A stretch of DNA of 29,574 bases, from positions 1 through 29,574 of IMG/VR virus record IMGVR_UViG_3300038321_000170. One strand, 5' to 3'. Source of the stretch: a virus (Duplodnaviria; Caudoviricetes). The notes under the pieces are model-generated. The model searched no databases and was not told the DNA's origin. It saw only the letters and a program-made list of their open reading frames with translations. How positions within the stretch are numbered: position 1 is the first letter of the stretch; the number at the start of each line of letters is the position of its first letter. Of this stretch, positions 466 to 29,482 are shown piece after piece. The position numbers and the translations under genes are program-made.

Positions 466-486
466 CACACCTGAAAGGAGGATAAC

Positions 487-2390: not shown

Positions 2391-2434
2391 AATAACTTAT
2401 TCCCTAGCTAGGAAAAGGCGAAAGGAATGACGAT

Positions 2435-3826: not shown

Positions 3827-3846
3827 CACTCGAAAGGGTGCTTTTA
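3825..3846 (+). terminator. Hairpin plus short U tract after terL
   Basis: AGCACTC-GAAA-GGGTGCT followed by TTT. Confidence 0.55.
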
Positions 3847-4019
3847 TGTTATAGCACATATCCTTAAAGGAATAATTTAAGGAGGTGATCCTATATCCCG
3901 TTGGTAGCATACGTTAGCTACTATTTTTCATGCAATAAATTCGCCTAGGGATGGCGTTAAAAGCTACCTAGCCCATCGGTGTCGTAGCACCGTAAACAAA
4001 TCGAAAAAGGAGAATGAGT

Positions 4020-4469: not shown

Positions 4470-4484
4470 AGGAGAAAAAACATT

Positions 4485-5384
4485 ATGGCAGCATTAGAAA
4501 AAGGAACATTATTTGACCCAAAATTAGTAACAGATTTAGTTAACAAAGTAAAGGGAGAAAGTTCACTAGCAACCTTGTCCAGACAAACACCAATCCCATT
4601 CAATGGGCAAAAAGAATTTGTATTCACTATGGATAATGAAATTGATGTAGTAGCAGAATCAGGAAAGAAATCTCATGGTGGAGTAACATTAACACCACAG
4701 ACAATCGTACCAATTAAAGTAGAATATGGTGCTAGAGTATCAGACGAATTTATATACGCATCCGAAGAAGAAAAAATATCTATATTAAAGGCATTTAACG
4801 ATGGATTTGCTAAAAAGGTAGCTAGAGGTCTCGACCTTATGGCTATGCATGGTGTAAATCCAAGAACTGGAACTGCATCAGCGGTAATCGGGACTAATCA
4901 TTTTGATTCAAAAGTTACTCAGGCGGTAGAATCAGCTCTTGGTATGGCTACCGCAAATGCAAATGTAGAAGCAGCGATCGCATTAGTAACTGGTTCAGAC
5001 GGAGACATTACTGGAATGGCTATTTCTCCATCATTCCGTTCAGCACTAGCAGGGATCACAAAGACAGACGGAAATCCAATGTTCCCAGAATTAGCATGGG
5101 GAAATCAGCCTTCAACTATTAACGGACTTGCAGTCAATGTTAATAAAACAGTATCAGACATGTCAACTTTAAGAGACCGTGTAATCGTGGGAGACTTCGC
5201 AAATTCCTTTAAATGGGGATATGCGAAACAAATTCCTTTAGAAGTTATCCAATTTGGTGACCCTGACAATTCAGGTCTTGACCTTAAAGGTTATAACCAA
5301 GTCTACCTAAGGGCAGAAGTTTACTTAGGTTGGGGAATTATGGACCCTGAAAGCTTTGCTAGAATCACAGAAGCTACAGCGTAG
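4485..5384 (+). CDS. Major capsid protein (HK97 fold)
   Basis: 299 aa after scaffold; VIVGDF...NQVYLRAEVYLGWGIMDPESFARI C-terminal pattern. Confidence 0.92.
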   Translation: MAALEKGTLFDPKLVTDLVNKVKGESSLATLSRQTPIPFNGQKEFVFTMDNEIDVVAESGKKSHGGVTLTPQTIVPIKVEYGARVSDEFIYASEEEKISILKAFNDGFAKKVARGLDLMAMHGVNPRTGTASAVIGTNHFDSKVTQAVESALGMATANANVEAAIALVTGSDGDITGMAISPSFRSALAGITKTDGNPMFPELAWGNQPSTINGLAVNVNKTVSDMSTLRDRVIVGDFANSFKWGYAKQIPLEVIQFGDPDNSGLDLKGYNQVYLRAEVYLGWGIMDPESFARITEATA

Positions 5385-5394
5385 GAGGTTTAAA

Positions 5395-5529
5395 ATTAGA
5401 TATAAAAATACCAAGACGGGGGCTGTCATTGACAGTCCTTGTGTTATTAAAGGCGAAAATTGGATTGAAGAAATTGAAAAAGTTAAAAAGCCAGTAAAGG
5501 CAACAACAAAATCTAAAGCAAAGGGGTAG
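5395..5529 (+). CDS. Small post-capsid protein (44 aa), probable ATT start; not in ORF track
   Basis: GGAGG at 5384-5388, 6 nt before ATT; reads (M)RYKNTKTGAVIDSPCVIKGENWIEEIEKVKKPVKATTKSKAKG and fills the gap exactly. Confidence 0.6.
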   Translation: MRYKNTKTGAVIDSPCVIKGENWIEEIEKVKKPVKATTKSKAKG

Positions 5530-5534
5530 ATTAA

Positions 5535-5921
5535 ATGGACTTTGCTACTATTCAAGATGTTACAGACTTATGGAGGCCACTTAAAAACGATGAAATTATT
5601 AGGGCGGAATCTTTGCTTGAAGTGGTTTCAGATTCGTTGCGAGTCGAGGCTACTAAAGTTGGTAAGGATTTAGACAAGATGGTTGCAGATAGTCCAACCT
5701 ACGCTACCGTTGTTAAGTCGGTAACGGTTGATATTGTTGCAAGAACATTGCTTACGTCGACTGAAAACGAACCAATGACACAAACAAGTGAATCTGCTTT
5801 AGGGTATTCCTGGTCTGGCTCTTATCTTGTACCAGGTGGTGGATTATTCATCAAGAACAGCGAATTAAGTCGTTTAGGGCTACGGAAACAGAGATACGGG
5901 GTGATTGACTTTTATGGCTAA
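5535..5921 (+). CDS. Head-tail connector (Gp19/Gp15/Gp42-like)
   Basis: FATIQDV...LWRPL start, SESALGYSWSGSY...GGLFIKNSELSRLGL; position after capsid. Confidence 0.85.
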   Translation: MDFATIQDVTDLWRPLKNDEIIRAESLLEVVSDSLRVEATKVGKDLDKMVADSPTYATVVKSVTVDIVARTLLTSTENEPMTQTSESALGYSWSGSYLVPGGGLFIKNSELSRLGLRKQRYGVIDFYG

Positions 5922-6252
5922 AATTAAAGGAATTACAGTTACCTTAATTAATAAAATTGAAACAGGAAAGGACCCATTCGGAAAGCCAATCTATGAAGAT
6001 TCGGAGATCCTAGTTGACAATGTGCTAGTTAGTCCAACATCTAGCGATGATATTGTAAATCAACTTAATTTAACGGGCAAAAAGGCAGTATATACGCTTG
6101 CAATACCGAAGGGGGATACCCACGACTGGAGGGATCGACGAGTTGATTTTTTTGGCCAGTCTTTTAAAACTTTTGGGGAACCGCTCCAGGGGATTGAATC
6201 CAATATCCCGCTGGATTGGAATATGAAGGTGAAGGTTGAAAAATATGATTGA
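5914..6252 (+). CDS. Head-closure protein
   Basis: GKDPFGKPIY, YTLAIPKGDTHDW motifs; synteny; ATG 5914 preferred. Confidence 0.7.
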   Translation: MAKIKGITVTLINKIETGKDPFGKPIYEDSEILVDNVLVSPTSSDDIVNQLNLTGKKAVYTLAIPKGDTHDWRDRRVDFFGQSFKTFGEPLQGIESNIPLDWNMKVKVEKYD

Positions 6253-6586
6253 AAAAATCGTATTGGATTATTTAAATGAAGCGCTGGATGTGCCATGTTA
6301 CATGGAGTATCCAGAAGAGAAGATTCTACCCTTTGTGGTAATTGAAAAAACCGGGTCAGGGGAATCCAATCATATAAAAAACGCAACATTTGCGCTTCAA
6401 AGTGTTGCCGAATCGTTGTATGCAGCGGCGGAATTGAATGGCGACGTAAAAGCAGCGATGGATGCCATAATTATACGGCCAGACATCAGTGCATCTAAAT
6501 TAAACGGCGACTATAATTTTACCGATGCGGCGACGAAGCAATACCGCTATCAGGCAATTTATGACCTGTATTATTGCAATGGTTAA
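6245..6586 (+). CDS. Tail terminator/completion protein
   Basis: MIEKIVLDYL...FVVIEKTGS...YNFTD..TKQYRYQAIYDL pattern. Confidence 0.7.
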   Translation: MIEKIVLDYLNEALDVPCYMEYPEEKILPFVVIEKTGSGESNHIKNATFALQSVAESLYAAAELNGDVKAAMDAIIIRPDISASKLNGDYNFTDAATKQYRYQAIYDLYYCNG

Positions 6587-6601
6587 AAAAGGGGAACACA
6601 A

Positions 6602-6859
6602 ATGAGTGTTATTAAAATAAGAATGAATTCCGCGGGGGCCAGAACAATTTTAAACAGTAGAGGAGTACAGCAGGACCTTTTGCGCAGGGCTGAACGTATA
6701 AAAGAAAAGGCCAATGGCATGGGGAAAGGGGTTTATGCAGCGGATGTAAAGGAAGGGAAAGTCCGGGCACATGCGATGGTTAAAACAACGGATGCCCATT
6801 CGATGGAATCGAATAAAAAACATAATTCGCTGCTGAAAAGTTTAAATGCTGGCAAATAA
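6602..6859 (+). CDS. Neck/tail-completion protein (HK97 gp10-like)
   Basis: Basic 85 aa, NSAGARTILNS...RAHAMV...NKKHNSLLKSL pattern. Confidence 0.6.
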   Translation: MSVIKIRMNSAGARTILNSRGVQQDLLRRAERIKEKANGMGKGVYAADVKEGKVRAHAMVKTTDAHSMESNKKHNSLLKSLNAGK

Positions 6860-6882
6860 GCCAGCGATTGGAGGAATAAACA

Positions 6883-7446
6883 ATGAGCAATAACTCAACA
6901 ACCAATGTATCTGCCGGCAAACCAAAGGTCGGTGGAGCGATTTTTGTGGCACCGTCGACAGAGACACTACCAACCGATGCGACGACAGCGTTACCTGAAA
7001 GTTTTGTCTGCGTTGGCTATATATCGGACGATGGTGTCAACAATAAAATTGAAATGAAAACCAGCGATATCCAGGCTTGGGGCGGGGATACGGTTTTAAG
7101 TGCACAGGAATCCCGGACGGAGACTTACGAGTTCACGATGATTGAGACCAATGAAGCATCGCTAAAGCAGGCATTTGGAGAGGAGAATGTAACGGTAGAT
7201 GGTGTAACAAAAGTAACTACTGTTAAGCATAATGGCCTTGAACGAAAAGCCTATGTTTATGTCGTGGAAATGATCATGACTGGAAACCGGGTGAAACGGA
7301 CGGTGATCCCCAATGGGAAAGTAACGGATATCGGCGAGATCAAATATGTGGATAAAGAGCCGATTGGTTACGATACGACGATTACGGCGCTGCCGGACGC
7401 AAGTGGCAATACAGCTTATGATTACATTGCAAGTACTGGAGCTTAA
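6883..7446 (+). CDS. Major tail protein
   Basis: NVSAGKPKVGGAIF.AP, GYISDDG, AWGGDTV motifs of r1t/TM4-like tail tube proteins; SD GGAGG. Confidence 0.9.
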   Translation: MSNNSTTNVSAGKPKVGGAIFVAPSTETLPTDATTALPESFVCVGYISDDGVNNKIEMKTSDIQAWGGDTVLSAQESRTETYEFTMIETNEASLKQAFGEENVTVDGVTKVTTVKHNGLERKAYVYVVEMIMTGNRVKRTVIPNGKVTDIGEIKYVDKEPIGYDTTITALPDASGNTAYDYIASTGA

Positions 7447-7450
7447 AAAG

Positions 7451-7729
7451 ATGGAAACAGAAGATAGAACAAGCATTCAAACCGTCGTGGTTGACGGGGT
7501 CCGCGTGACCCTGGACCCGGCGGTTTTTGACGATATGGACATTTTAGAAACCATTGTTGACATTGAAGACGGCAATGGGGCCCGGATTGTTACCCTGATG
7601 CGGCGGATTTTTGGAGACGATTATACTCGGATTAAAAGCGAACTTAAGGGGAACAAAGAGGTATTGACAGTTACAGCGATGGCCGAATGGGTTGAAAAAA
7701 TGATGGAGGAATTAGGCCAAAAAAACTGA
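7451..7729 (+). CDS. Tail assembly chaperone (gpG-like)
   Basis: Between MTP and TMP; start reassigned to ATG 7451; ends in slippery A AAA AAC. Confidence 0.8.
   Translation: METEDRTSIQTVVVDGVRVTLDPAVFDDMDILETIVDIEDGNGARIVTLMRRIFGDDYTRIKSELKGNKEVLTVTAMAEWVEKMMEELGQKN
7720..7726 (+). other. -1 programmed ribosomal frameshift site
   Basis: X XXY YYZ heptamer A AAA AAC immediately before TGA; next ORF is in the -1 frame and open across the site. Confidence 0.8.
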
Positions 7730-8136
7730 TGGTGCTCGCGGTGTTCAGGGCCCGGTATAGGGCGGAGCTGCGGGCGGATTTTAGGGCTTATTATAATGTG
7801 AGTGCGGACCAAATCGGCACGTCCATCAGCGTGAGCGAGGCAATGGATCTGGCAGCGCAACTGCCAGCCGGGTCCCGGTGTATGACCGCGACAAATCCCG
7901 CCAATAAGTGGGACGTTAAGGATATTCTTTTGAATAATGTTTCGAACACTGTAAGTTTGTTGGCGTGGGCATTAACAAGTACCGGCAAAACAGAGTGCCC
8001 TAAACCCTTTGTTTTACCGGGCATGGATGAGGCTCAAAAATCCGGGGCCAGTAAAACCCGGAGAAGTCCATCTTATACAGTAAAGGAATGCCAGAAAATT
8101 TTGAGTCAACCCAGAAAGGAGGCTTCTTATGGCTGA
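7729..8136 (+). CDS. Tail assembly chaperone gpT part (G-T fusion)
   Basis: -1 frame relative to gpG; ELRADFRAYY...LAAQLPAGSR pattern; precedes TMP. Confidence 0.75.
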   Translation: MVLAVFRARYRAELRADFRAYYNVSADQIGTSISVSEAMDLAAQLPAGSRCMTATNPANKWDVKDILLNNVSNTVSLLAWALTSTGKTECPKPFVLPGMDEAQKSGASKTRRSPSYTVKECQKILSQPRKEASYG

Positions 8137-10054
8137 GTTAGCAACAGCATATATTACACTGATTCCATCGCTAAGAGGCGCAGCCGCCAGTATAACAAAA
8201 CAACTTGGAGAGGTTGATACCAGCGGAGCCGGGAAAACGATGGGCGGAAAAGCGGGGGGCGGATTTGCCTCTGGGTTGCTTGGTGCTGGAGCCATTGCAG
8301 GAGCGGCGGCCGCAGTGACGTCAAAAGCGATGGGTGTGATTTCAAATTCCATGGGGGGTGCCATTTCACGTGTCGACACCATGAATAACTTTCCGAAGGT
8401 GATGCAGAATTTGGGGTATTCATCTGAAGATGCATCAAAATCCATAAAAAAGATGAGTGACCGACTGACCGGACTGCCAACATCCTTGGATAGTATGACT
8501 GGCATGGTGCAGCAGATTGCCCCACTAACCGGTGGGCTGGATGAGGCCACGAATATAGGGTTGGCTTTTAACGATATGCTATTGGCTTCGGGAAAAGGTA
8601 CGGCTGATCAGACGCGTGCCATGGAGCAGTACGCCCAGATGCTTTCAAAAGGGGCTGTTGATTTGCAAAGCTGGCGAACTCTCCAAGAAGTGATGCCGGG
8701 GCAGCTTAACCAGGTGGCCCAGGCGCTTTTGGGGCCGACGGCGAATAGTCAGTCTCTGTATGAGGCTATGCAAAATGGCACGGTATCGATGGATGATTTT
8801 AACAACGCCATGCTTAATCTGGATCAGAACGGGGCCAATGGCTTCGCGTCATTTAGCCAACAGGCTAAGGATGCAACCGGCGGGATCGCTACCGCTTTTG
8901 CCAATGTCAAGACATCCATTTCACGATCACTTGCGGGGGTTATGGATGCCATTGGGCAAACCAATATCTCCGGCGTGATTAACGGAATTAGCCCTATCAT
9001 ATCTGGGATTGGTAATGTGCTTGTTACCATGGTCAATATGGTAAAAGCCAGCGGACTAGGCGAAACCATCGGCAAAGCCTTTGATGGCATGAAGACGGCA
9101 CTCGGGCCGGTAGTTAGTCAATTGGCCCCAATCTTGATGCAATTCTTTGGGGCCGTCCTTAATTTCTTGAATTTTATCATCCCGCCGATTGTTAAGGTGG
9201 TTACTGTGATTCTTTCCATTGTAATCCCAGTTGTTGAGGGATTAATTTTTATCGTATCCGGCATTCTCAATGGAATCGTTGCCGTGTTCTCAGGAGCCGT
9301 AGCACTTATTCAGGCCGTATGGGGAGGCATTGTCGGATTTTTCCAAGGTATTTGGAATGGGATTTGTGCTGTGTTCTCAGCCGTTGGCGAATGGTTTGGA
9401 GGCGTTTTTGGTTCAGCAGCTTCTGCCATTCAAGGCATATGGAGCGGGATAACAGGGTTCTTCCAGGGCATCTGGGGCGGCTTAAGTTCTGCTGCATCAG
9501 GTGCAGTTGATGCCGTTGTTGGATTTGTATCTGGGCTACCAGGCACTGTGATGGGATTTTTTTCAGATGCCGGTTCCTGGCTTTGGGATGCCGGGTCCAA
9601 TATCATGAGCGGGCTGTTGTCTGGAATCAAGAGTGCTTTTGAAACGGTCAAGGATTTTGTTTCAGGCATTGGCACATGGATTGCGGAACATAAAGGGCCA
9701 AAGAGCTATGACTTGGCCCTGCTTATCCCTAATGGTCAGTGGATTATGCAGTCCTTGGCTACCGGCTTAAAAGCAGGCCTGCCGGGCGTGAAAAATGTGC
9801 TTGGCGCTATCACGGATGAGCTGGGAAACAGCCAGACTGCGCAAATCGCTGTGACGTCAGCGATGACAGCTCAGAGCACACCGGGACGGGCGAGTGAAGG
9901 CAATTCTCTGGCAATGATCATGCAACTGCTGGTCGATATCAAAGGGAAAGATAGCAACGTCTATTTAGACAAAGATAAAATAAACAAAAGCTTAGCTCCG
10001 GGCATGGATACGCAATTGGGCATCCGGCAGGCAGCCGCTTCTAGGGGGTTCTGA
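8129..10054 (+). CDS. Tape measure protein
   Basis: ELATAYITLIPS start, tape-measure domain (RVDTMNNFPKV...QYAQMLSKG), W/F-periodic Gly/Ala repeats, HKGPKSYD motif. Confidence 0.93.
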   Translation: MAELATAYITLIPSLRGAAASITKQLGEVDTSGAGKTMGGKAGGGFASGLLGAGAIAGAAAAVTSKAMGVISNSMGGAISRVDTMNNFPKVMQNLGYSSEDASKSIKKMSDRLTGLPTSLDSMTGMVQQIAPLTGGLDEATNIGLAFNDMLLASGKGTADQTRAMEQYAQMLSKGAVDLQSWRTLQEVMPGQLNQVAQALLGPTANSQSLYEAMQNGTVSMDDFNNAMLNLDQNGANGFASFSQQAKDATGGIATAFANVKTSISRSLAGVMDAIGQTNISGVINGISPIISGIGNVLVTMVNMVKASGLGETIGKAFDGMKTALGPVVSQLAPILMQFFGAVLNFLNFIIPPIVKVVTVILSIVIPVVEGLIFIVSGILNGIVAVFSGAVALIQAVWGGIVGFFQGIWNGICAVFSAVGEWFGGVFGSAASAIQGIWSGITGFFQGIWGGLSSAASGAVDAVVGFVSGLPGTVMGFFSDAGSWLWDAGSNIMSGLLSGIKSAFETVKDFVSGIGTWIAEHKGPKSYDLALLIPNGQWIMQSLATGLKAGLPGVKNVLGAITDELGNSQTAQIAVTSAMTAQSTPGRASEGNSLAMIMQLLVDIKGKDSNVYLDKDKINKSLAPGMDTQLGIRQAAASRGF

Positions 10055-10055
10055 T

Positions 10056-10901
10056 ATGGTTGATCAAATTTTTATTGATGGTGAAGGAACCTACGATACG
10101 TATGGGCTCATTCTAACCGAAGCGTCCGAGGAACCACCAGAACCTAAAATCTATACGGTGGATGTGCCCGGCGGGGATGGCCAGATTGATTTATCGGAGT
10201 TTGGTGGGGATCTGGTCTACAGCAACCGCAATATGACATACACATTCCTTCTAACCAGCCGGGAGAAATCAAAAATTGAAGGAGAAAAAACAAAATTATC
10301 CAGATTGTGGCACGGTAAAAACTTGCCATTTACCCTGTCCTGGGACACTGGATATACCTATACCGGACGGATTACGATTGATAAATACCCGAACAACTAC
10401 AGATATGGGACGATAACACTGAAGATTTCGGCTAAGCCGTATAAGTTTTATAAAATCCGCACCCTTTTGGTTAATGCCGCTGGGGGTGTGGTTGTAAGTA
10501 TTGAAAACGGCCGGAAGCGCGTTTGTCCGACGATTGAAGTGCAGCACACCACGCTGGTGGCATTTGAAGGTGAGACTTACACCTTGGAGCCGGGGACCTA
10601 TAAGATTAAAGATCTCTGGTTTCGGGGCGGAACCAATGAAGTGGTTTTAAACAGTTACCCTGAATACAATTATGCAACCTGGGAATACTACACGGGGAAA
10701 ATATGGGCCAATTATGCCGATAAATTGTTGAGTGTCTTGTGTGCCGGTGATCAGCCTCTACAGGCTTATGATCGATGGATAAATTACAGTGGTAAGACGT
10801 GGTGGGACCTGGAAGGGAAAACGTGGATGGATTTATCCCATCCTGCAACATCTGGCGATAAATACAGTGTTTATATACAATACGACATTTACGAACTTTA
10901 A
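10056..10901 (+). CDS. Distal tail protein (Dit) with Trp-rich insertion
   Basis: Follows TMP; PPEPK...VDVPGGDGQIDLSE..G.LVYSNR motif. Confidence 0.8.
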   Translation: MVDQIFIDGEGTYDTYGLILTEASEEPPEPKIYTVDVPGGDGQIDLSEFGGDLVYSNRNMTYTFLLTSREKSKIEGEKTKLSRLWHGKNLPFTLSWDTGYTYTGRITIDKYPNNYRYGTITLKISAKPYKFYKIRTLLVNAAGGVVVSIENGRKRVCPTIEVQHTTLVAFEGETYTLEPGTYKIKDLWFRGGTNEVVLNSYPEYNYATWEYYTGKIWANYADKLLSVLCAGDQPLQAYDRWINYSGKTWWDLEGKTWMDLSHPATSGDKYSVYIQYDIYEL

Positions 10902-10918
10902 ATTAAAAAGGAGCATAT

Positions 10919-11323
10919 ATGAGTACGAAAACAACCCTTATGAAAATGACCTGCCCGGCGGTGACCGATGATGTGCAAAGCACCATATCGGCGCTTGCGG
11001 CTAATTTTAATATTATTGACGCTTTGTATCCGATTGGAACGATCTATCAGAGCACAAAATCGACTAATCCTTCCACCTTTATTGGGGGGACATGGACGGC
11101 GATTCAGAACAAATTTTTGGTAGGTGCTGGATCTGACTTTGCGGAAGGGACCACCGGTGGGCAGAAAACAATGGGTGTTCATAAATCCGGCGATGAAGCA
11201 GACGGATACGGCCTATCTCAAGTTACGGGTTTTGCTAACCGGGTGATGGTGGCCAGTCAGGATTATTCTGGGAAGATTTTGCCACCTTATAAAGCGGTGT
11301 ATATGTGGGAAAGAACTGCATAG
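10919..11323 (+). CDS. Baseplate/fibre-associated protein (T4 gp10 C-terminal-like domain)
   Basis: YPIGTIYQS...NPSTFIGGTW...FLVGAG...GTTGG...LPPYKAVYMWERTA. Confidence 0.7.
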   Translation: MSTKTTLMKMTCPAVTDDVQSTISALAANFNIIDALYPIGTIYQSTKSTNPSTFIGGTWTAIQNKFLVGAGSDFAEGTTGGQKTMGVHKSGDEADGYGLSQVTGFANRVMVASQDYSGKILPPYKAVYMWERTA

Positions 11324-11344
11324 TATTTTTTAAGGAGACACACG

Positions 11345-13525
11345 ATGTATCGATTGTTTTATGATGGTGAGGTGCTCCATGATCCGCGGGACGATAAACG
11401 CCGGGTGACCGAGTGTAAGGTGGAGTTGGAGTCCAATACGGCGGGGACCCTTACGTTTAAAATAGCGCCAGCGCATCCGCTTTTCGGGAAGCTCCAGGCC
11501 ATGGATACGGGCCACGAAGTGACCGTGATGGATGATACTGTAGAGGTTTTTCGCGGCCGGATCAAATCCGACGGAAAAGATATGCAGACCGTAACGAATG
11601 TGACTTGCGAAGGCCAATTAGCGTATTTAAATGACAGCGTTGTGCGGGCCTATGGAACGTATGCGTCCGATGATGAAAACTGGACCGTTGTGAAGGGGGA
11701 TAATATCTTTCGCTGGTACGTCAGCCAGCACAATGGCCAGAGCGATGCGAATAAACAATTTGTCATCGGTAAATGCGAAACGGGATACGGATTGACCCGC
11801 AGCAGCACCCAGCACCCGACGACGGGACAGGAGATCAAGGAAAAATTACTGGATGCTCTGCCTTGTTACATTGACTGTTACATGGACAATGGTGAGCGCA
11901 TACTTGACCTGCTGGAGTTTGGCGGAGCAGATGCAGAACAATCCATTGAATTTGGAACAAATTTGCTGGACTATGCCACTACTCGGGACGCATCAAACAT
12001 CATTACTGATATCATCCCGACAGGGACAGATAACGACAACAATGCGATTGATATTACGTCCTTGCGCGATGGGGATTATGGGAGCTGCTACAAGGAGGGC
12101 GACCATGTATCGTTTTCTGCGGGCGTTAATTTGTACGGGCACATCACCGAAGCGCGCAGTTATGATGGGACAACACCATCAGAGTTGCTGAATGCTTCGA
12201 TAAATGATTTACAGACGTCTTCTGAGGTAATAGAGAGTGTCAATATCAAAGCTGTGGATCTGCATAATGTGGATCCGACGGTGAAACCGATTCGTCTAAA
12301 TGAATGGGTGCTAGTAAGTTCTAAGCCCCACGGAGTGTATCAGCCCATGATGTGCGTGAAGATGACGATTGATATAAATGATCCGACTCGGACAGTATAT
12401 ACCTTTGGTGCAACGCTTCCGTCGCTGACATCAGACAGTGCTATGAAGGTGGCGCAGAACAGGCAACGGCAGGAAGAAATGATTGTGGCGGCAGCGGCTA
12501 TAAGTGTAGATGCCAAGGCAGCGGCTGAATTGGCTACGACAGCACAGATGGCTGCGAATACAGCCCAGACTGCGGCTAACACAGCCCAAAGTACAGCCGA
12601 TACGGCAAAAACCACAGCAGACACGGCGCAAGGTACTGCTAATACGGCAAAAACCACAGCAGACACGGCGCAAACCACAGCAGACACGGCGCAAAGCACA
12701 GCCGATACGGCAAAAACCACAGCAGACACGGCCACATCTAATCTGTCCGCATTAACAACACGCGTTTCCACAGCAGAGAGTAAGTTGACTGCAACCGCCT
12801 TGACAACGACAATATCCAGTGCCCTTACCGGTAGCAATGCTATTTCCACCACCAAATTTGTCATGGATAAGGATGGCCTGCTCATCAAAAGTGGTGGATT
12901 ATCTATCCAAAACAATGCGGGGACGACGGTGCTTAGCGCAGACGTGGCGGGCAACCTGACATTTACTGGGGCGCTGAATGGGGCTACTGGTACTTTTCGT
13001 GGGGCACTTACTGCCTATAATTCCTCAGGTAAATTACTGATGCAGGCTAGTGCGGGTAGGATTAATTTTTATGATGGAGCCAACAATGTCGTTACTGGGT
13101 ATGTTGATTCGGATCTGACTGCCAACACCAATAATATAAGGATAAACGGGAACGGCCTGCTTGCTTTATCTGTTTCGGGTACGCAAGTTGTGGGTATTGC
13201 TCAAAATCGATGCAATATTTATAAACCAATTTTATATCAAGGGGCATTGGTGACGATGCCGAGAATCTATGCGGGGACTGCTGTGCGTGACGCCGGCGGA
13301 GGAAATAGTGTGCAACTTATATCACTCTCTCAAATCAATAGCTGGTTTGGGATTAATAATGCAAGTGCTGTAAACACAGCAGTTTTTGTATCGAATGGCG
13401 ATGGCGCGGCTTCTAATGCACACTGCCAAGATGCAACTTTTTTAGGTGGAGAATGGTGGGCAACGTTCGACAGAACGGGCGTTACGACAATCCGTATCAA
13501 TTATTTAGTTGTCTGTTGGGCTTAA
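11345..13525 (+). CDS. Tail hub/spike (Tal-like) with coiled-coil stalk and C-terminal extension
   Basis: N-terminal phage tail endopeptidase-like domain (AGTLTFKI, CEGQLAYLNDS, IEFGTNLLD), heptad repeats, beta-rich C-terminus. Confidence 0.8.
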   Translation: MYRLFYDGEVLHDPRDDKRRVTECKVELESNTAGTLTFKIAPAHPLFGKLQAMDTGHEVTVMDDTVEVFRGRIKSDGKDMQTVTNVTCEGQLAYLNDSVVRAYGTYASDDENWTVVKGDNIFRWYVSQHNGQSDANKQFVIGKCETGYGLTRSSTQHPTTGQEIKEKLLDALPCYIDCYMDNGERILDLLEFGGADAEQSIEFGTNLLDYATTRDASNIITDIIPTGTDNDNNAIDITSLRDGDYGSCYKEGDHVSFSAGVNLYGHITEARSYDGTTPSELLNASINDLQTSSEVIESVNIKAVDLHNVDPTVKPIRLNEWVLVSSKPHGVYQPMMCVKMTIDINDPTRTVYTFGATLPSLTSDSAMKVAQNRQRQEEMIVAAAAISVDAKAAAELATTAQMAANTAQTAANTAQSTADTAKTTADTAQGTANTAKTTADTAQTTADTAQSTADTAKTTADTATSNLSALTTRVSTAESKLTATALTTTISSALTGSNAISTTKFVMDKDGLLIKSGGLSIQNNAGTTVLSADVAGNLTFTGALNGATGTFRGALTAYNSSGKLLMQASAGRINFYDGANNVVTGYVDSDLTANTNNIRINGNGLLALSVSGTQVVGIAQNRCNIYKPILYQGALVTMPRIYAGTAVRDAGGGNSVQLISLSQINSWFGINNASAVNTAVFVSNGDGAASNAHCQDATFLGGEWWATFDRTGVTTIRINYLVVCWA
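12538..12735 (+). repeat. Imperfect 21-nt tandem coding repeats (TADTAQ/K heptads)
   Basis: ACGGCAAAAACCACAGCAGACACGGC at 12602, 12644 and 12707 (spacings 42 and 63). Confidence 0.9.
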
Positions 13526-13550
13526 GCAAACATAAAAAAGGAGAATAACT

Positions 13551-13748
13551 ATGGCTTTAAAAAACAAAAATCAATCAATTAGTTTATCGGCACAAAAAAA
13601 TATTAATATTGGCCGAACGATATCAAATAGCGCTGCATACCGGGAGCACCGGACGGAATGCCTAGAAGACCAAACGGCCCTTGAGGATGCGGTGTACGCT
13701 ATTGTGGACAGTATGGCGCCGAAGGAGTCAACAAATGAAACTATCTAA
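13551..13748 (+). CDS. Small hypothetical tail-region protein
   Basis: SD AAGGAG; 65 aa; overlaps next gene start. Confidence 0.65.
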   Translation: MALKNKNQSISLSAQKNINIGRTISNSAAYREHRTECLEDQTALEDAVYAIVDSMAPKESTNETI

Positions 13749-14085
13749 CGCCACACTCATCGCCCTAATCAATGGCATTGGCACCATTCAGGAGGTAGAC
13801 TTCCCCGTGTCGGCCTCTTTTGCATTGTCGCAAAACACGGAGGCCTTATTGGATGCGTATAAGCCCTATGCCACGGAATACGAAAAGATTAACGCCAAAT
13901 ACGGCGATAAGCCGGAGCTTACCGCAAAGGTTCGTGAGCTCCAGGGACTCGAGGTGGATGTTGAGCTTAAGACATTGCCGGCAGAGTACTTGGAGATTAT
14001 TGTGGCATCTCCGGTACGGATGGCGATGGTCAATCTTAATGCGCTGCGGCGGTATATTTTTAGTGAGCGGAGCGAAAATGAATGA
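13735..14085 (+). CDS. Hypothetical protein (DUF1617-like)
   Basis: SD AAGGAG before ATG 13735; MKLSN...FPVSASFALSQN...KINAKYG pattern common after tail genes. Confidence 0.6.
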   Translation: MKLSNATLIALINGIGTIQEVDFPVSASFALSQNTEALLDAYKPYATEYEKINAKYGDKPELTAKVRELQGLEVDVELKTLPAEYLEIIVASPVRMAMVNLNALRRYIFSERSENE

Positions 14086-14308
14086 TGAAAAATTAGAACA
14101 CATTGTCGCAACCCACGAAAAGCGCATCAATGACCATGGGGAGCGCCTGGATAAGTTGGAGCTGCAAAGCAGCCGATTGGAAGAGCGCATTACGGCGCTG
14201 TGCGACAAATTGGAGATGCAGACTCGAGCCCTTAACTGGCTGATTGGGTTGGCGGCGACTGGGCTTGTTGGATTTTTTATGTATGCACTACAAAATAGTA
14301 TTTTTTAA
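14078..14308 (+). CDS. XhlA-family membrane protein (lysis accessory)
   Basis: HEKRINDHGERLDKLE coiled-coil plus one C-terminal TM segment (WLIGLAATGLVGFF); real start ATG 14078. Confidence 0.8.
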   Translation: MNDEKLEHIVATHEKRINDHGERLDKLELQSSRLEERITALCDKLEMQTRALNWLIGLAATGLVGFFMYALQNSIF

Positions 14309-14332
14309 AGGAGCGTTAAAATGAGCACAAAA
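14306..14332 (+). repeat. Direct repeat copy 1 (27 bp, 1 mismatch to 16882-16908)
   Basis: TAAAGGAGCGTTAAAATGAGcACAAAA. Confidence 0.9.
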
Positions 14333-14426
14333 TATGTTTTTTTTGCTGAAAGAAACGGGAATCAAGGCAGTAAGAACAATGGCACAGACCTCCGCGCTAA
14401 TTGGGGATAACCATGAGATATATTGA
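14321..14426 (+). pseudogene. Degenerate, frameshifted 5' holin fragment
   Basis: Same RBS/start as the holin at 16897; removing one T from the T8 run (14337-14344) gives MSTKYVFLLKETGIKAVRTMAQTSALIG vs holin [29 protein letters not shown]. Confidence 0.75.
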
Positions 14427-16767
14427 CGTGAAGCTGGATGGGACTTCGGTTCAGATGGAGCCAGTGGTTATCCGGCAGTACAACAATTTGGTGGATACGG
14501 TAGCGGTGAAGCTGAAGAGCGATATGGATGGGCTTGTGGTGGAGGATTACAATGTGTTCATCCAGACGGACCTTATAAGGCGGGATAAAATACCACTTGC
14601 CCCGTGCCCCTCATCGGTGGATATTGTCGTGGAAGAGGGCTATCTTGGTTACACTTGGCCAATTGATTCGGCGGTTACACGGTATAAAGGCATTTTGCGA
14701 TTTGAGGTACAGCTAGAGCATAAAACCGATGCTGCCATCCCAATCTGGCAGTCTGAGGTGTGCGAGCTGATTACTGTGGCACCAAATATCTGCGATAATG
14801 CGAAACTTGGGGATGATGGGCCTGCGATTTTGCAGGAGGTCTACCAGCAACTGCAGACGCTGGGAGACCAAGCGGAACAGGCGGAGGCCAGTGCCACAAG
14901 CGCAGCAGCCAGCGAAACCAACGCCGCAACCAGCAACCAAAACGCAGCCACCCATGAGCAGGCTGCAAAAGGATACGCCGATGCAGCTGAGCAATTTGCG
15001 ACTGCGGCGGGAGACGGGACTATCCCAACGGAGCTGTCGGACATGCGGGTGGGGTCCGACGGGACGACGACATATGCCACGGCGGGGGCCCGGGTGACAG
15101 GCGAAATTAGTGAACTAAATGCGACAATGATGCCAAGAAAAAATATATTTAACAAATCAAAAGTAATAGATGGAAGTTATGTTTCTTATAGTTCCGGATA
15201 TGTTTTTTCAAATACTGGATTTACAAGATCCGATTACATACAGGTATCCGCGTCAACAGCATATGTTGTAAATAATTATACATCATTACAAATGGCATTT
15301 TATGATAACAGCAAACATTATATTTCTGGATTTTATTATGGAAATGAATCATTAACTTTTACAACTCCGTCAACAGCTGCTTACATTAGATTTAGTGTTC
15401 AAAAATATATGATTGATGATTTTCAAATAGAACTTGGGATAAAACCTACTTTTTACGAAGAATATCAATATAAAATAGACGGAGATAATATTGGTGATAA
15501 AACGATTGATCTTAGTGCTCCGAAATATATTGACTATTATACACAATTTATCGATACATCAAAAGCAACGATTGGAAAATATTACGATAGATTATCAGAA
15601 TCGTTACAAATATCATCTGATACCGCTTATATACCAAAAATAAAAATAGAATCAGGTAAAACTTATTACTATAAAGGTATTTTTAATTATTACTGCACAG
15701 TGATAAATTTGGATGGAACTAAATTTGCTTTGTCTGATGTTACATCTGATAATGGCGTCGCTGGAAATTTAACGGCAGTAAAAGATGGATATATTTATAT
15801 CACGTTAAATGTTTCGGGCGGGGAAATAATATGGAGTCCAATGTTTTGTGATGGATTTTTGCCAGATAATTATATTGATGGGCATATATTTAATTTAAAA
15901 ATTGACGGACAAGGAATAGATCTTGGACCGTCGGTTAGACAAGTAACTGTAAAGACGGATGGCAAAGGAGATTACACAGGTATTAGGCAAGCGATGGATG
16001 CAATAAGTCCAGATAAGTATAATAATTATATTATAGAGGTGTATCCAGGCACATACGATATTAAATCCGAGTACTCAGAAGAAGAATGGGTAGATGATGG
16101 AAGCTTTAAAGGGCTGGTAGTAAAAGATTTTGTAACTATTCGCGGGATTGGAAACAAAGAAGATATCATATTGACTGCAATTGACACGGAATATAAAGTT
16201 AACATATCAGCATTAAATCTTAAGAATACTTGTGGGCTTGAAAATATTACAGTGAAAGGAGAGAAATTAAGATATGTAATACATGACGATTATGCAGATG
16301 CAGGACAAGGCGAATATAAGCGAATATGCAAAAATTGCATATTCGAAGGAACAGATTTAAACGCCAGTTACAATGTGGTGTACGGATCAGGATTGAAGCA
16401 GGGAGCTAATTGGATTTTTGAACAATGTATATTTAGTTACACAGATAAGTCAAATGGAGGAACATTTAGCACACATAATAACACAAGATGGGAAAGAGGA
16501 GCAAAATTATGTTTTAAAAATTGTAGATTTAAAGCAGGTACTGATGGGACAGGTGGATTATTTATTTTAGGAACTCTTGTGACCGGAGCTAATGGATTGA
16601 TAACAAACATTGAAATAATTGGAAGCAAAATTAAAACAATATTATTTAACAATCAAGAAGGAATCGGAAATTTATTTACTATATCAGGCTACGGGAACGA
16701 TATTGAAAATTTTTCTTATCAAATTAATGATGGACATACCTATTTAGATTATGTGGACTTAATATGA
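14413..16767 (+). CDS. Receptor-binding/depolymerase-like protein: BppU-like N-terminus, Ala-rich stalk, CBM-like repeats, pectinesterase-like beta-helix
   Basis: WPIDSAVTRYKGILRFEVQ...IWQS (BppU-like); FYD...YISG...FTTPSTAAYIRFS; VTVKTDGKGDYTGIRQAMDAI...IEVYPGTYD. Confidence 0.7.
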   Translation: MRYIDVKLDGTSVQMEPVVIRQYNNLVDTVAVKLKSDMDGLVVEDYNVFIQTDLIRRDKIPLAPCPSSVDIVVEEGYLGYTWPIDSAVTRYKGILRFEVQLEHKTDAAIPIWQSEVCELITVAPNICDNAKLGDDGPAILQEVYQQLQTLGDQAEQAEASATSAAASETNAATSNQNAATHEQAAKGYADAAEQFATAAGDGTIPTELSDMRVGSDGTTTYATAGARVTGEISELNATMMPRKNIFNKSKVIDGSYVSYSSGYVFSNTGFTRSDYIQVSASTAYVVNNYTSLQMAFYDNSKHYISGFYYGNESLTFTTPSTAAYIRFSVQKYMIDDFQIELGIKPTFYEEYQYKIDGDNIGDKTIDLSAPKYIDYYTQFIDTSKATIGKYYDRLSESLQISSDTAYIPKIKIESGKTYYYKGIFNYYCTVINLDGTKFALSDVTSDNGVAGNLTAVKDGYIYITLNVSGGEIIWSPMFCDGFLPDNYIDGHIFNLKIDGQGIDLGPSVRQVTVKTDGKGDYTGIRQAMDAISPDKYNNYIIEVYPGTYDIKSEYSEEEWVDDGSFKGLVVKDFVTIRGIGNKEDIILTAIDTEYKVNISALNLKNTCGLENITVKGEKLRYVIHDDYADAGQGEYKRICKNCIFEGTDLNASYNVVYGSGLKQGANWIFEQCIFSYTDKSNGGTFSTHNNTRWERGAKLCFKNCRFKAGTDGTGGLFILGTLVTGANGLITNIEIIGSKIKTILFNNQEGIGNLFTISGYGNDIENFSYQINDGHTYLDYVDLI

Positions 16768-16908: not shown

Positions 16909-17121
16909 ACAGTAACATGGATTAAAGCGGCAGGCGTTAGAGCGGTTAAGACTGTGGCACAGACCGCCGTGGCAACCATCGGCACTGCCGCAGTGATGGG
17001 TGAAGTCAATTGGATTATGGTGGCATCCGCTGCTGGATTGGCCGGGGTGCTATCTATCCTGACCAGTGTAGCAGGGTTGCCAGAAATTAAGGGGGAAAAT
17101 GATGAGTTTAAACGGAATTGA
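16897..17121 (+). CDS. Holin, r1t family
   Basis: [22 protein letters not shown]...[11 protein letters not shown], two TM segments, precedes endolysin. Confidence 0.92.
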
Positions 17122-18508
17122 TATCGCGAGTTATCAGGCCGGGATTGATTTAGCTGCTGTCCCAGCGGATTTTGTCATCGTCAAGGCGACACAGGGGACG
17201 GGCTACGTTAATCCCTATTGTGATGAGCATTATCATGCGGCAAAAGCCGCAGGTAGGCTTGTTGGTGTCTATCATTATGCTGGTGGCAACGGCGCAGAGG
17301 CAGAGGCTGAGTTTTTTGTAAACAATATCCGCGGTTACCTGGGAGAGGCGCTACTCGTGCTGGACTGGGAAGCGGCGGAGAACAGTGCCTTTGGCAGTGT
17401 TGACTACGCCAAAGCATTCTTGGACCATGTGTTTGCGCTTACTGGCGTAAAGCCGCTGATTTACATGAGCTCCAGCGTTGTGACCGGCTGCGACTGGTCC
17501 GCTGTGGCCGCTGGGGACTACGGCCTATGGGTTGCCGGGTATTATAATGGCTACAACGCGATGTCGTACAATTCAGACGCGCCGATGCAAAATATTGCTT
17601 ATTGGGGCTGTGCGTCCATGTATCAGTACACGAGTTCGGGTCAACTGCCCAATTATGGCGGAAGCTTGGACTTAGATGTATTTTACGGTGATGAAAGCGC
17701 TTGGCGGGCCTATGCCGGCACAGCACAAGCCCCATCAGACCCCGAGCCGCCAACGGGAGATGTGCCTATCACGGATCGCCCAATCTGCAATGAGCAGCAT
17801 TTCGGCATTTGGGTGCGCAATGTCCATGACAATGTGGGCGTATCTAAAGTTATGGCAGCTGTATGGTCCGCTTTTGGTGGACAGGACGACCTGGTCTGGT
17901 ATGATATGGCTCCGGCCCCTGACGGTGAGGCAGATAGCTATGCGCTATCCATTGACGTGGCCAAGCATGGTGGCGTCAGCGACGGGAACAACATCATCGC
18001 GGATGTATACGCCTTTGACGCAGCTGGAAACAGGCGTTGCCTTGGCCGGTGTACAACAGAAATGACGACTCGGATTGATAGCCCACTAAAACCAATGGGG
18101 AACGTGATCAGTAAGGCGCACGTTCAAAATTTTGGCTGGCTGGATACCGTGGGCGAGGGTGAAACGGCTGGTACCACGGGCAAGGGGTTACGACTAGAGG
18201 CTCTAGCAGTGCGGTCCTGTATTGATGGGATTATGGTCAAACTGCAAGGCCATGTTGAGGATTACGGATGGATGCATACCATTAACCAGGACCAGGCAGT
18301 CGGGACGATTACACAGTCGAAACGACTGGAAGCGATCAAGCTTACATTGGAAGGCGAAAAGGCGGATCGGTACACCATTACCTACCGTGCCCACGTCCAA
18401 GGAATTGGCTGGATGGATTGGGTTTCCGACGGCACGATCGCCGGTACGACCGGCAAAGGCCTGCGCATGGAAGCCGTGCAGATAAAAATCGAAAAGAAAG
18501 CGGCTTAA
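17099..18508 (+). CDS. Endolysin: GH25 muramidase + Bsp-like domain + ChW repeats
   Basis: [24 protein letters not shown] (GH25); [15 protein letters not shown] (Bsp-like); three HVQ/E..GW...GT...LR(L/M)EA repeats (ChW). Confidence 0.92.
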
Positions 18509-18689: not shown

Positions 18690-18716
18690 CCCCTAGCTTC
18701 GGCTGGGGGCTTTTTT
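18690..18716 (+). terminator. Rho-independent terminator
   Basis: CCCCTAGC-TTCG-GCTGGGGG-C-TTTTTT. Confidence 0.9.
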
Positions 18717-18751
18717 ATTGCAAAAAATAAAAAAAATAATCTTAAAAACAC

Positions 18752-18780
18752 TTGACATTTGCCCTCTATGGGTATATAAT
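18752..18780 (+). promoter_or_regulatory. Consensus early promoter P1
   Basis: TTGACA-17 nt-TATAAT with A-rich UP region. Confidence 0.92.
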
Positions 18781-18832
18781 ATACTTAAAGATAAAGAGAG
18801 AGACAAGGAAAAGTCCAAAACACCAGAAAGAT
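18770..18832 (+). repeat. 63-bp perfect direct repeat copy 1 (-10 box plus leader)
   Basis: Identical to 19385-19447. Confidence 0.92.
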
Positions 18833-18838
18833 AAAAAA

Positions 18839-19306
18839 ATGAAAAGATTAGAATATAGCCAAGAAGTACACGATTTATTATTAGAAATAGCAGAAGAAGG
18901 GTCTTGTTATTGGAGATACCAAGGCTCCCATCACAACGGATTAATCCCCGTGGGACACAAATCCAACGAAAGAATTTTTGAAGGTGAAGAACCCGAATTT
19001 GAAGAAGAAGGGTGCTCCTGCTACGATAACCCTTGGCAGCTGCTAGAATACTTGGCAATCGACGGACAGGATTTAGACAAAACAGATGTGGTCCTGTTTG
19101 TTGGGGATCACGTGGGCTACGGAATCGTTGAAGAGGATGTAGTTGAAGTTACAGAAGAGTCCGACGTTATGTACTCTTTAAGTCTTAGAGATTTTTATAA
19201 ATTTGCTTTTAATGTTCCAGAAGACCTATATTGGAATACTTATAATGTAAAAGAAAAATTCTGCGATTATACAGAAGAGTTTATAAAAGAAGTTTTTAGC
19301 AAATAG
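18839..19306 (+). CDS. Highly acidic early protein (155 aa), candidate anti-defence factor
   Basis: Track start 18752 is the -35 box, so ATG 18839 is the plausible start; about 36 D/E vs 12 K/R by hand count. Confidence 0.75.
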   Translation: MKRLEYSQEVHDLLLEIAEEGSCYWRYQGSHHNGLIPVGHKSNERIFEGEEPEFEEEGCSCYDNPWQLLEYLAIDGQDLDKTDVVLFVGDHVGYGIVEEDVVEVTEESDVMYSLSLRDFYKFAFNVPEDLYWNTYNVKEKFCDYTEEFIKEVFSK

Positions 19307-19366
19307 GGGCAACTCATAATTTTAGGTAAAAAGTTCAATAATTTTTAAAAAAAATATAAAAAACTA

Positions 19367-19395
19367 TTGACATTCCCCCTCTAGGGGTATATAAT
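19367..19395 (+). promoter_or_regulatory. Consensus early promoter P2
   Basis: TTGACA-17 nt-TATAAT; spacer dyad CCCCT-CT-AGGGG. Confidence 0.92.
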
Positions 19396-19447
19396 ATACT
19401 TAAAGATAAAGAGAGAGACAAGGAAAAGTCCAAAACACCAGAAAGAT
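19385..19447 (+). repeat. 63-bp perfect direct repeat copy 2
   Basis: Identical to 18770-18832. Confidence 0.92.
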
Positions 19448-19793
19448 GAAGACAATGAATAATTACTACGAAAAATTGGACAAAGAACTTGGAAAAGAAT
19501 TACCAAGATTGGAAACGACAGAAATGTTTTACTTTACAGCCGGGCAAGTAGCCCGGTACATATTAAAGCAAGCACCGGCAGGACGGCATTACAATAAGAT
19601 TAATCCGTTGCTCGCTGCGAAAACGAGCGGGGAGCTAAAGAAAAAGATTTTAACAGCGTTTAAATCTAACAATAACATAGACCAAAATGAACGGTTTGAA
19701 CGTGCGCTTGCGATCGTCCTCGGATGGAAACAAGACGATCCGGTGGATGAAGAAACATTAATTTTGGGATACACGACAAAATCCGCATTTTAA
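19446..19793 (+). CDS. Stand-alone Cas8b(Csh1) C-terminal/Cas11b-like protein, candidate anti-CRISPR
   Basis: Collinear motifs FYFTAGQVARYIL, INPLLAAKT..ELKKKI...F, RFERALAIVLGW, VDEETLILGY match the remembered Csh1 C-terminal pattern; start could be ATG 19455. Confidence 0.72.
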   Translation: MKTMNNYYEKLDKELGKELPRLETTEMFYFTAGQVARYILKQAPAGRHYNKINPLLAAKTSGELKKKILTAFKSNNNIDQNERFERALAIVLGWKQDDPVDEETLILGYTTKSAF

Positions 19794-19854
19794 ACAAATT
19801 AAGCTGACCTACCGGCTACACGGGGAGAAAGATAAAACAATATGGGAGGAATAA

Positions 19855-20055
19855 TTGGACAACAATCTTATCCCGCTAACACAGTGGACAAAAATGAACG
19901 GTCTTAATCCACGCTATTGCCGTCGAAAGGCGGCACGCGGTGGATACAAAACAGCAGTTAAAATTGGTAGAGATTGGATGATCGACAAAAATGAAAAAAA
20001 TGTTGATCTAAGGGTAAAAAGTGGGAAATATAAAAATTGGAGGAACCGAAAATGA
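19855..20055 (+). CDS. Small basic HTH DNA-binding protein (HTH_17/excisionase-like), Aca candidate
   Basis: LIPLTQW...GLNPRYCRRKAARG..KTAVKIGRDWMID; SD GGAGG before TTG. Confidence 0.75.
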   Translation: MDNNLIPLTQWTKMNGLNPRYCRRKAARGGYKTAVKIGRDWMIDKNEKNVDLRVKSGKYKNWRNRK

Positions 20056-27883: not shown

Positions 27884-28243
27884 ATGAATTACAACACAAG
27901 ACCAGATAAGAAAGGGGCACACCGCGCTAATTACGAAAGGAATAAGAAACGTATACTAGCGACCCAAAATATATGTGGCATATGCGGTAAGCCTGTAGAC
28001 ATGAGTTTAAAGTACCCTCATCCCATGAGTGCTACAATAGACCACATCATACCTGTAAATGGAAAGAATGGAATTAGCGGGCATCCATCAGATTTGTCTA
28101 ATCTCCAGCTGGCCCATCTTTCTTGTAATCGTCAGAAGTCAGATAAGATATTTAAAGAGAAAAAAATATTTGAACCAATTGTATTGGGCAATAGGAATTT
28201 ACCACAAAGCATTAACTGGGCAACATATAGAGCAGAAAAATAA
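27884..28243 (+). CDS. Packaging-associated HNH endonuclease
   Basis: CGICG...IDHIIP...NLQLAHLSCNRQKSDK. Confidence 0.9.
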   Translation: MNYNTRPDKKGAHRANYERNKKRILATQNICGICGKPVDMSLKYPHPMSATIDHIIPVNGKNGISGHPSDLSNLQLAHLSCNRQKSDKIFKEKKIFEPIVLGNRNLPQSINWATYRAEK

Positions 28244-28504: not shown

Positions 28505-29482
28505 GTGGAGATTTTGGAAGAATATAAAATAATACCTGTAGGAAGAGCTAAGAACATCATAGGCGAAAGGTTTGGTAGATTAGTAATAGTGGCAAGAACA
28601 GAAAATAGCAACAATGACGTATGGTGGTTGTGTAAATGCGATTGTGGAAACATGAAAGTAGCAAGGACAACTTCTTTAAGGTCTGGAGATGTAGTCTCTT
28701 GTGGTTGCAGAAGAGCCGAACTAAATACTCCGCACGATATCAAAGGTCAAAAGTTCGGAAGATTAACAGCTATTGAATTAACAGATAGACGTAGTCCAAG
28801 TGGAGATGCTTATTGGAAATGTAAGTGTGAATGCGGGAGTGTAATAGAAGTTAAAAAGAGCAGTTTAAGTGGTGGCCATAGTAAATCGTGTGGGTGCATA
28901 AATAGAGAATTGACAAGCAGAAGACAAAGCGAGAGCGGTTATGACTTAACTGGAAAAAGATTTGGAAGATTGAAAGTAATTAAGCCTATCGGGAAGAGAG
29001 AAGGACAAGGCAGAGTTTGGTTGTGCGAATGCGATTGCGGTAATGTCATAGAAACGGTAGCATCCTCTTTGGTTAGAGGTAGGGCGACATCATGCAGTTG
29101 TAAAGCGGTAGAACACGTTACCCAATTAGGTTTAAGTAATAAAGGTAAAAACAACCCTGCATACAATCACGAGCTAACAGATGAACAGAGAAATAAAAAT
29201 AGATTTCAAAGAGGTTCTGATGAAGCAAAGAAAATAAGAAGAAAGACATACAAGAGAGATGGTTACAAATGTAACATCTGCGGTAAAGGAAGCAGAAATC
29301 TAAATGCTCATCACTTAGATAGTTTCGTAGATAATGAAGATAAGAGATTTAATCTTGATAACTTAGTTACATTATGCAAAGAGTGCCATATAGACTTTCA
29401 TAAAACATATGGATATGGTAACAACACTAAAGAACAATTCAAAGAGTTTAAAGAGTTTAAAGAAATTAAAAATATAATATAA
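28505..29482 (+). CDS. Free-standing HNH homing-endonuclease-like protein with three Zn-binding repeats
   Basis: Three G.(R/K)FGRL...W.C.C(D/E)CG...L..G...SC.C repeats then RDGYKCNICG...AHH...NLVTLCKECH..FH. Confidence 0.85.
   Translation: MEILEEYKIIPVGRAKNIIGERFGRLVIVARTENSNNDVWWLCKCDCGNMKVARTTSLRSGDVVSCGCRRAELNTPHDIKGQKFGRLTAIELTDRRSPSGDAYWKCKCECGSVIEVKKSSLSGGHSKSCGCINRELTSRRQSESGYDLTGKRFGRLKVIKPIGKREGQGRVWLCECDCGNVIETVASSLVRGRATSCSCKAVEHVTQLGLSNKGKNNPAYNHELTDEQRNKNRFQRGSDEAKKIRRKTYKRDGYKCNICGKGSRNLNAHHLDSFVDNEDKRFNLDNLVTLCKECHIDFHKTYGYGNNTKEQFKEFKEFKEIKNII

Follow-up and report, generated by a model that had tools for sequence, protein, structure and literature searches.

The question raised by this locus is what a gene resembling the C-terminal part of the type I-B protein Cas8b does in a phage genome. 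The window that we analysed, 29,574 nucleotides in length, is the whole of an IMG/VR record estimated to be 86% complete, with terminase, portal, capsid, tape measure, holin, lysin and replication genes. No other cas gene was found among the 39 other ORFs or the 3 neighbours of the phage record, and no CRISPR array was found in the record; the statement of an earlier note on this DNA that the gene stands without a cas operon is thus supported. Elsewhere in the record, a 21-nt tandem repeat encoding a seven-residue Ala/Thr-rich unit (12512-12732) lies inside a 726-aa tail-region gene, and two HNH-domain genes (27884-28243 and 28505-29482) lie at the right end.

The ORF at 19446-19793 (+) is open over 115 aa, within an open frame of only 127 aa, and contains all four motifs that had been quoted from it in the earlier alignment by eye. 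A start at 19446 adds 3 residues to the protein that starts at 19455. The true start is probably the latter, giving 112 aa, because the close relatives P0002, P0004 and P0052 begin at the matching Met and a purine-rich leader motif lies 9 nt ahead of this ATG, whereas it abuts the ATG at 19446. In a search with the PADLOC profile PDLC01507 (Cas8b, type I-B), residues 2-115 of the longer form matched positions 433-550 of 559, the last fifth of the profile (E 1.1e-18), and profile-profile comparison (hhalign) with host-type Cas11-sized proteins gave 99.75% (E 1.8e-27, 114 columns). A full HMMER scan found 45 remote homologues at E 0.001 or better, 42 of which match PDLC01507 and are Cas8b or pieces of it; 22 homologues are full-length proteins (562-632 aa) matched at their C-terminus. 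These results confirmed significant sequence kinship to the C-terminal region of type I-B Cas8b, as the earlier note had claimed. Its label 'Csh1-type' held only loosely: one plasmid relative is named Cas8b/Csh1 by RefSeq, but TIGR02591 (Csh1) was matched by 1 of 8 full-length relatives, under the cut-off (78 vs 104 bits). The phage protein had no family match in Pfam, NCBIfam or PHROG, so standard annotation hides such genes. No PDB entry was matched significantly by sequence, whether the query was the phage protein, its alignment or one of the full-length relatives.

In other type I-B systems, Cas11 has been reported to arise by internal initiation (PMC11096372, PMC13199841, 10.1101/2024.10.02.616218). 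We compared 53 host cas8b genes, 51 from genome searches and 2 from plasmids. An in-frame start was present within 6 codons of the expected Cas11 boundary in 52 of them, in line with the earlier statement that type I-B Cas11 is a separate product of internal initiation, and GGAG or GAGG preceded the boundary start in 44/53 genes, compared with 18/526 other internal Met codons. This is sequence evidence that the Cas8b family makes Cas11 via internal initiation. The phage protein begins at the same boundary, about 4-5 residues shorter in front, and is therefore a stand-alone Cas11.

The gene lies in an accessory region past the endolysin (Table 1). The two copies of the promoter-leader cassette are 615 nt apart, and the Cas11-like gene directly heads the second. 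The claim that it is first behind a perfect promoter holds for that cassette; an unrelated gene is the first after the lysin terminator, because the cassette of the Cas11-like gene is the second of the two copies. Between its two boxes, the promoter of this second copy contains a short inverted repeat (19376-19387) that may be an operator.

Table 1. Features of the accessory region past the endolysin gene of the phage record
Feature	Position	Strand	Basis or remark
Endolysin (GH25, Bsp-like, ChW repeats), left edge of accessory region	17099..18508	+	Pfam PF01183, PF08481, PF07538
Intrinsic-terminator-like hairpin closing the lysis module	18690..18717	+	–
First copy of promoter-leader cassette	18721..18850	+	promoter 12/12 at 18752-18780
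155-aa accessory gene in first cassette, Asp/Glu-rich by inspection	18839..19306	+	no family
Second copy of 130-nt promoter-leader cassette	19336..19465	+	84% identical to 18721-18850; also in L002
Sigma-70-type promoter, 12/12	19367..19395	+	related promoters in L002, L003
Stand-alone Cas11-like gene (Cas8b C-terminal homologue), 112 aa	19455..19793	+	PDLC01507, hhalign, model, starts of relatives
Short intergenic repeated element	19803..19830	+	copies: window 1, L002 1, L003 4, L004 1, L005 1
66-aa excisionase-like, probably helix-turn-helix protein	19855..20055	+	phrog_629, E 0.0013

The 155-aa gene has no Pfam, NCBIfam or PADLOC family, and its look-alikes in the Atlas are viral hypothetical proteins recognised at a low level; by its position, it is a second candidate anti-defence gene. 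The 66-aa gene is kept downstream in the related loci L002 and L003 at 89-90% nucleotide identity (dN/dS 0.08-0.19), and its product is a candidate Aca-type autorepressor. Searches of Pfam, NCBIfam, PADLOC and PHROG named none of the neighbours as a known acr or aca. The element between the two genes had no Rfam match above threshold (one at E 0.34) and is likely to combine a ribosome site with a recombination module. Its kin stand ahead of accessory genes in related phages. The cassette is spanned by joins between contigs of the same study (likeness set at 80; the short side of one join is only 30 bases), and a scan of viral contigs with the promoter-leader pattern found no match. The post-lysin region is an exchangeable accessory locus. 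Acr operons frequently occupy such a place, past the lysin and next to a helix-turn-helix gene, and in Listeria, too, they often lie downstream of lysin genes (10.1101/2023.06.24.545427).

Related sequence was found at four metagenome loci (L002-L005). At L002, a copy 87% identical stands past a different cell-wall hydrolase-like ORF as the second gene behind the same kind of promoter, with the same 66-aa-type small gene downstream. L003 carries two Cas11-like paralogues past a lysin-like ORF, each near a 66-aa-type small gene; its segment 686-4944, with about ten small genes, five near-consensus promoters, two excisionase-like genes and a DnaJ-like ORF, is a candidate anti-defence island. L004 (1458-1712) and L005 (1729-1983), of a temperate phage, retain only the last 21 codons and the downstream element, which are fused to an unrelated ORF next to an integrase; identity to the window is 95% over 108 bases. 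N-terminal fusions are seen in P0003 and P0054, P0003 having at its front nine residues from the start of the upstream gene. A further stand-alone copy of 121 aa is encoded by a Paenibacillus larvae plasmid (L006:5998-6363) behind a 209-aa gene of no family, with no annotated cas gene within 6 kb.

No relative was found among IMG/VR viral contigs (queries P0001, P0008, A3 and P0007) or among GTDB genome contigs and GenBank phages by short-exact-word scans, which may miss near kin. The capsid-linked viral loci L009-L090, most of which stop short of the lysin region, gave no match at E 0.01. Relatives of the lysin and helicase occur in a Solobacterium phage (40% over 327 aa), a C. scindens phage (51% over 234 aa), and Ruminococcus phages (39%), among others, with lysin matches in Actinobacteria phages as well; these relatives point to an anaerobic Bacillota host. 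A lysin search of genomes found matches of only 28-55% in several taxa, and none of 5 such genomes matched the Cas11 alignment. The Cas8b family itself was present in 16/400 genomes of the class of Sellimonas, 36/401 of the order of genome G395 and 9/401 of the phylum, three of these nine being short and weak matches; all three sets were samples. Peptostreptococcaceae, Epulopiscium, Cetobacterium, Psychrobacillus and Clostridium butyricum are among the named relatives.

To what extent does the phage protein resemble the Cas11 of hosts? We aligned 75 host rows with 10 stand-alone rows and one weak match, with P0008, P0014 and P0026 classed as stand-alone by length and divergence only; P0017, P0022 and P0040 were omitted from the alignments for their non-Cas matches. 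A core of Gly-Gln, Asn-Pro, Arg-Phe and the last Gly is kept in the stand-alone rows. The Tyr of a Lys-Tyr motif, present in 95% of the 75 host rows, is missing in 10/10 stand-alone rows, although the phage protein has a gap at this column, which is alignment-dependent. In a smaller alignment, the motif occurred in 32/36 host-like rows and 0/8 stand-alone rows. A C-terminal Lys, found in 75% of host rows, is likewise missing in 10/10, the phage protein ending ahead of the C-terminal Tyr-x-Lys tail. The phage protein also lacks both Ser of the loop after helix 2 (Ser-x-Ser) and the Asp-x-Glu ahead of the loop. The earlier note had suggested a comparison of DNA-contacting basic residues; simple loss of these is not the explanation, because the net charge (+2) equals that of host copies (+2.2, sd 2.9) and the phage protein retains 4 of the 7 conserved basic columns. 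The idea of an acidic, DNA-repelling decoy was likewise not supported. Sequence searches of the PDB found no solved structure for this Cas8b family, so the role assigned to the lost residues is a guess.

In a tree of 133 columns (L164, a weak match, omitted), nine stand-alone copies grouped with support of 93/96, with long branches and a bootstrap that had not settled. The copy from a prophage-like contig of G395 fell apart from the group of the window on a very long branch, which suggests two origins of stand-alone copies. The frame is intact and the length constant across relatives at 35-92% identity. The protein shares 65% of its residues with the L003 paralogue, and synonymous sites between the two are saturated; relative to the closest relative (L002), dN/dS was 0.42, a weak estimate on about 10 synonymous changes. 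These substitution patterns show purifying selection on the stand-alone gene.

The phage protein was modelled as six helices (pLDDT 88), and the model of a host-type Cas11-sized protein, P0013 (known without gene context), showed much the same layout. With a host-type Cas11 from a stand-in host as the partner, the predicted docking of the phage protein scored 0.49 against 0.00 for the best of three controls, in a range (0.60 or under) that was given by 18/157 solved pairs and by both passing mismatches (2/215). Contacts agreed by at least 82% between runs, and partner pLDDT was at least 80. The docking of the phage protein on host-type Cas11 is thus weakly supported, and the pass may be due to family likeness.

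The nearest known case is AcrIB4, a homologue of the Cas8b C-terminus from mobile elements of Listeria seeligeri that inhibits type I-B (10.1101/2023.06.24.545427). Common to AcrIB4 and the phage protein is that a homologue of this region stands alone outside a cas locus; both are about 30-38% identical to host copies and form their own tree group, and the phage gene shares the position downstream of a lysin gene that is frequent among Listeria acr operons (10.1101/2023.06.24.545427). AcrIB4, called 9.1 kDa in a review (PMC13131331), matches the last 90 residues and has homologues limited to Listeria, whereas the phage protein has 112 aa and spans nearly the whole Cas11 region. Relatives of the phage protein are clostridial-type Cas8b, unlike those of AcrIB4, and no Listeria record occurs among the plasmid or phage matches to its family. 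Because size and range differ, we do not file the phage protein as AcrIB4, although it likely works in the same way. Inhibition has been shown for AcrIB4 and is inferred for the phage protein.

A CRISPRi assay placed the block by AcrIB4 upstream of DNA binding, not at Cas3 recruitment; its incorporation into Cascade was never shown in that report, where no functional tagged allele was obtained (10.1101/2023.06.24.545427). Replacement of Cas11 by AcrIB4 has been proposed from prediction (10.1101/2025.06.06.658234), and the review calls the mechanism unclear (PMC13131331). We consider it probable that the phage protein is likewise a decoy of Cas11 that replaces the host subunit and blocks stable target binding. 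Expressed early and strongly from its own promoter, the protein would stack on the C-terminal domain of Cas8b and on Cas11 neighbours via its kept helical core and displace host Cas11 within Cascade. The R-loop would then not be held, because the protein lacks the Ser-x-Ser loop, the fourth-helix Lys-Tyr and the C-terminal Tyr-x-Lys tail, and a Cascade with the phage protein would no longer bind target DNA stably, which would make the protein an anti-CRISPR. The small 66-aa protein downstream may repress the cassette. A step before stable DNA binding is preferred because AcrIB4 left Cascade assembled and relieved CRISPRi. The earlier note had proposed a block of either R-loop locking or Cas3 recruitment; the AcrIB4 data argue against the second half (10.1101/2023.06.24.545427), and the first is the one retained here.

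The same interaction could take place outside the finished complex, with the phage protein binding free Cas8b or Cas11 and starving or destabilising the assembly of Cascade. The weak docking fits such a block equally; in Thermotoga, Cas8b1 was not co-purified without Cas11 (PMC13199841), and fewer complexes were obtained in Haloferax without Cas11b (10.1101/2024.10.02.616218). Since the AcrIB4 pull-down still contained Cas8b, Cas7, Cas6 and Cas5 (10.1101/2023.06.24.545427), we regard a block of assembly as unlikely.

A different use of the protein is raised by G395, the genome of which has a run of cas6-cas8b-cas7-cas5-cas3 (ORFs assigned by inspection, together with a Cas8b match). Its prophage-like contig carries a stand-alone copy of 118 aa beside amidase (lysin) and tail genes. 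About 1.2 kb upstream of this copy is a mini-array with two host CRISPR repeats, with 2 and 4 mismatches of 29, and short spacers. The segments concerned are L127:289-389 and L128:1521-1710 (G395) and L178:2936-3050. A second phage contig keeps both the copy and the mini-array, and in the prophage and this contig the two lie about 1-1.3 kb apart. One spacer matched 17/17 bases just ahead of the ribosome site of host cas6, in the cas6 promoter region and next to TCA, as did 1 of 2000 shuffled controls; the same spacer matched 16/17 bases of a spacer-like piece within a degenerate mini-array that the host itself carries upstream of cas6. When G395 was searched with bases 1-15,000 of the prophage contig (27,901 bases), none of 10 matches was a self-targeting spacer. 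Viral crRNA-like RNAs have been reported to silence cas genes and act with Acrs (10.1101/2024.10.29.618823), and the G395 mini-array resembles these silencers; the main text of that report mentions neither 'Cas11' nor 'cas8'. The G395 locus ties stand-alone Cas11-like genes to anti-type-I-B loci, in a different lineage from the window, and counts in favour of the anti-CRISPR reading preferred above.

From this pairing of a stand-alone copy with a mini-array matching the cas6 promoter, and from the reported cooperation of silencing RNAs with Acrs (10.1101/2024.10.29.618823), one could suppose that the protein is a selective replacement subunit, with which Cascade represses via short partial matches and does not cut, so that phages use the Cascade of the host as a repressor. 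We hold this to be improbable for the window: the G395-host repeat, sought at up to 9 mismatches, was found neither there nor in L002-L004, no array was found in the record, the G395 copy is outside the tree group of the window, and AcrIB4 relieved CRISPRi on a matched target (10.1101/2023.06.24.545427). A broader version, in which mobile elements would have repeatedly excised Cas11 from clostridial-type Cas8b, each dropping the Lys-Tyr and the C-terminal tail, and the decoyed Cascade would repress via short matches, be unable to lock a full R-loop and work with cas-silencing phage mini-arrays, also has a rather small chance of being right.

The protein might also have left CRISPR biology, as a small helical protein of Cas11 descent that binds, for example, nucleic acid or another host protein. 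Many surface residues conserved in hosts are lost, and three short ORFs among non-cas genes of genome contigs, L163:1576-1860, L164:1255-1674 (-) and L165:1564-1851, matched the Cas11 alignment weakly (E 3e-4 to 9e-4); they are possibly a separate stand-alone family. Fold searches bear on this reading as well. Foldseek found no match at E 0.001 in the PDB or BFVD, and an exhaustive search ranked 3E0Z (EUBREC_1070) first (Z 10.5, rmsd 3.2, 101 aligned), followed within the first five ranks by three Cas8c C-terminal chains (Z 6.5, 5.6 and 5.3, a range common among helical bundles); a type I-A Cascade chain gave Z 4.7 and a type I-B CAST chain Z 3.5. The structural check that the earlier note had called for thus came out mixed, with high-ranked Cas8c chains on one side and an empty Foldseek search and a best match not titled Cas on the other. 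The host-type Cas11 model, run as a control, also had 3E0Z first (Z 10.7, rmsd 3.5, 105 aligned), with the same Cas8c chains in its first five ranks (6.7, 6.4 and 5.7). As the order is nearly the same, the non-Cas top match separates nothing, and we rejected it as a refutation of Cas11 kinship; nor would the Z values of the Cas chains in such model-based searches prove kinship alone. With the ties in sequence to Cas8b far stronger than those to anything else, and with the weak docking on host-type Cas11, a role outside CRISPR appears to be a poor prospect. EUBREC_1070, titled a putative imidazole glycerol phosphate synthase homologue, has 13% identity and no sequence match to the phage protein and may itself be a Cas11-fold protein.

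That the gene is a captured cas8b fragment drifting without function, which the chimeric and truncated forms (the last 21 residues in L004 and L005, the fusions P0003 and P0054) and the dN/dS to the nearest relative would allow, is very hard to credit in view of its intact frame of constant length, the saturation of synonymous sites, the start at the Cas11 boundary and the well-supported group of nine copies.

The reading that we prefer, replacement of host Cas11 by a phage-borne decoy, is also in keeping with what the protein shares with Cas11b and with what it lacks. Region, start boundary, predicted six-helix layout and fold-search ranking are the same; unlike Cas11b, which is made inside cas8b of a cas operon, the phage protein has its own gene and promoter, is shorter in front and is without the Ser-x-Ser loop, the Lys-Tyr motif and the Tyr-x-Lys tail. 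As a virus-borne cas homologue with neither an array nor a cas operon, it resembles the orphan viral cas genes, of which 358 loci have been predicted in IMG/VR (10.1101/2023.06.24.545427). Located on a mobile element, off arrays and cas operons, and diverged, it fits the setting of Cas-derived anti-CRISPRs of the AcrIB3/AcrIB4 kind. The idea of a Cas11 decoy is already in print (AcrIB4; EVADES), and the present family would be a further case of that kind. Our literature search, with subscription journals and bioRxiv supplements outside its coverage, found no report of this stand-alone Cas11 family.

Few type I-B anti-CRISPRs have been characterised. The family described here lies outside Listeria and is longer, and the repeated loss of the same residues offers a direct swap test of what the R-loop needs from Cas11. 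If inhibitory, the phage protein would serve as an off-switch for a type I-B family that several percent of the sampled clostridial genomes carry, and Cas11 decoys would be a recurring strategy.
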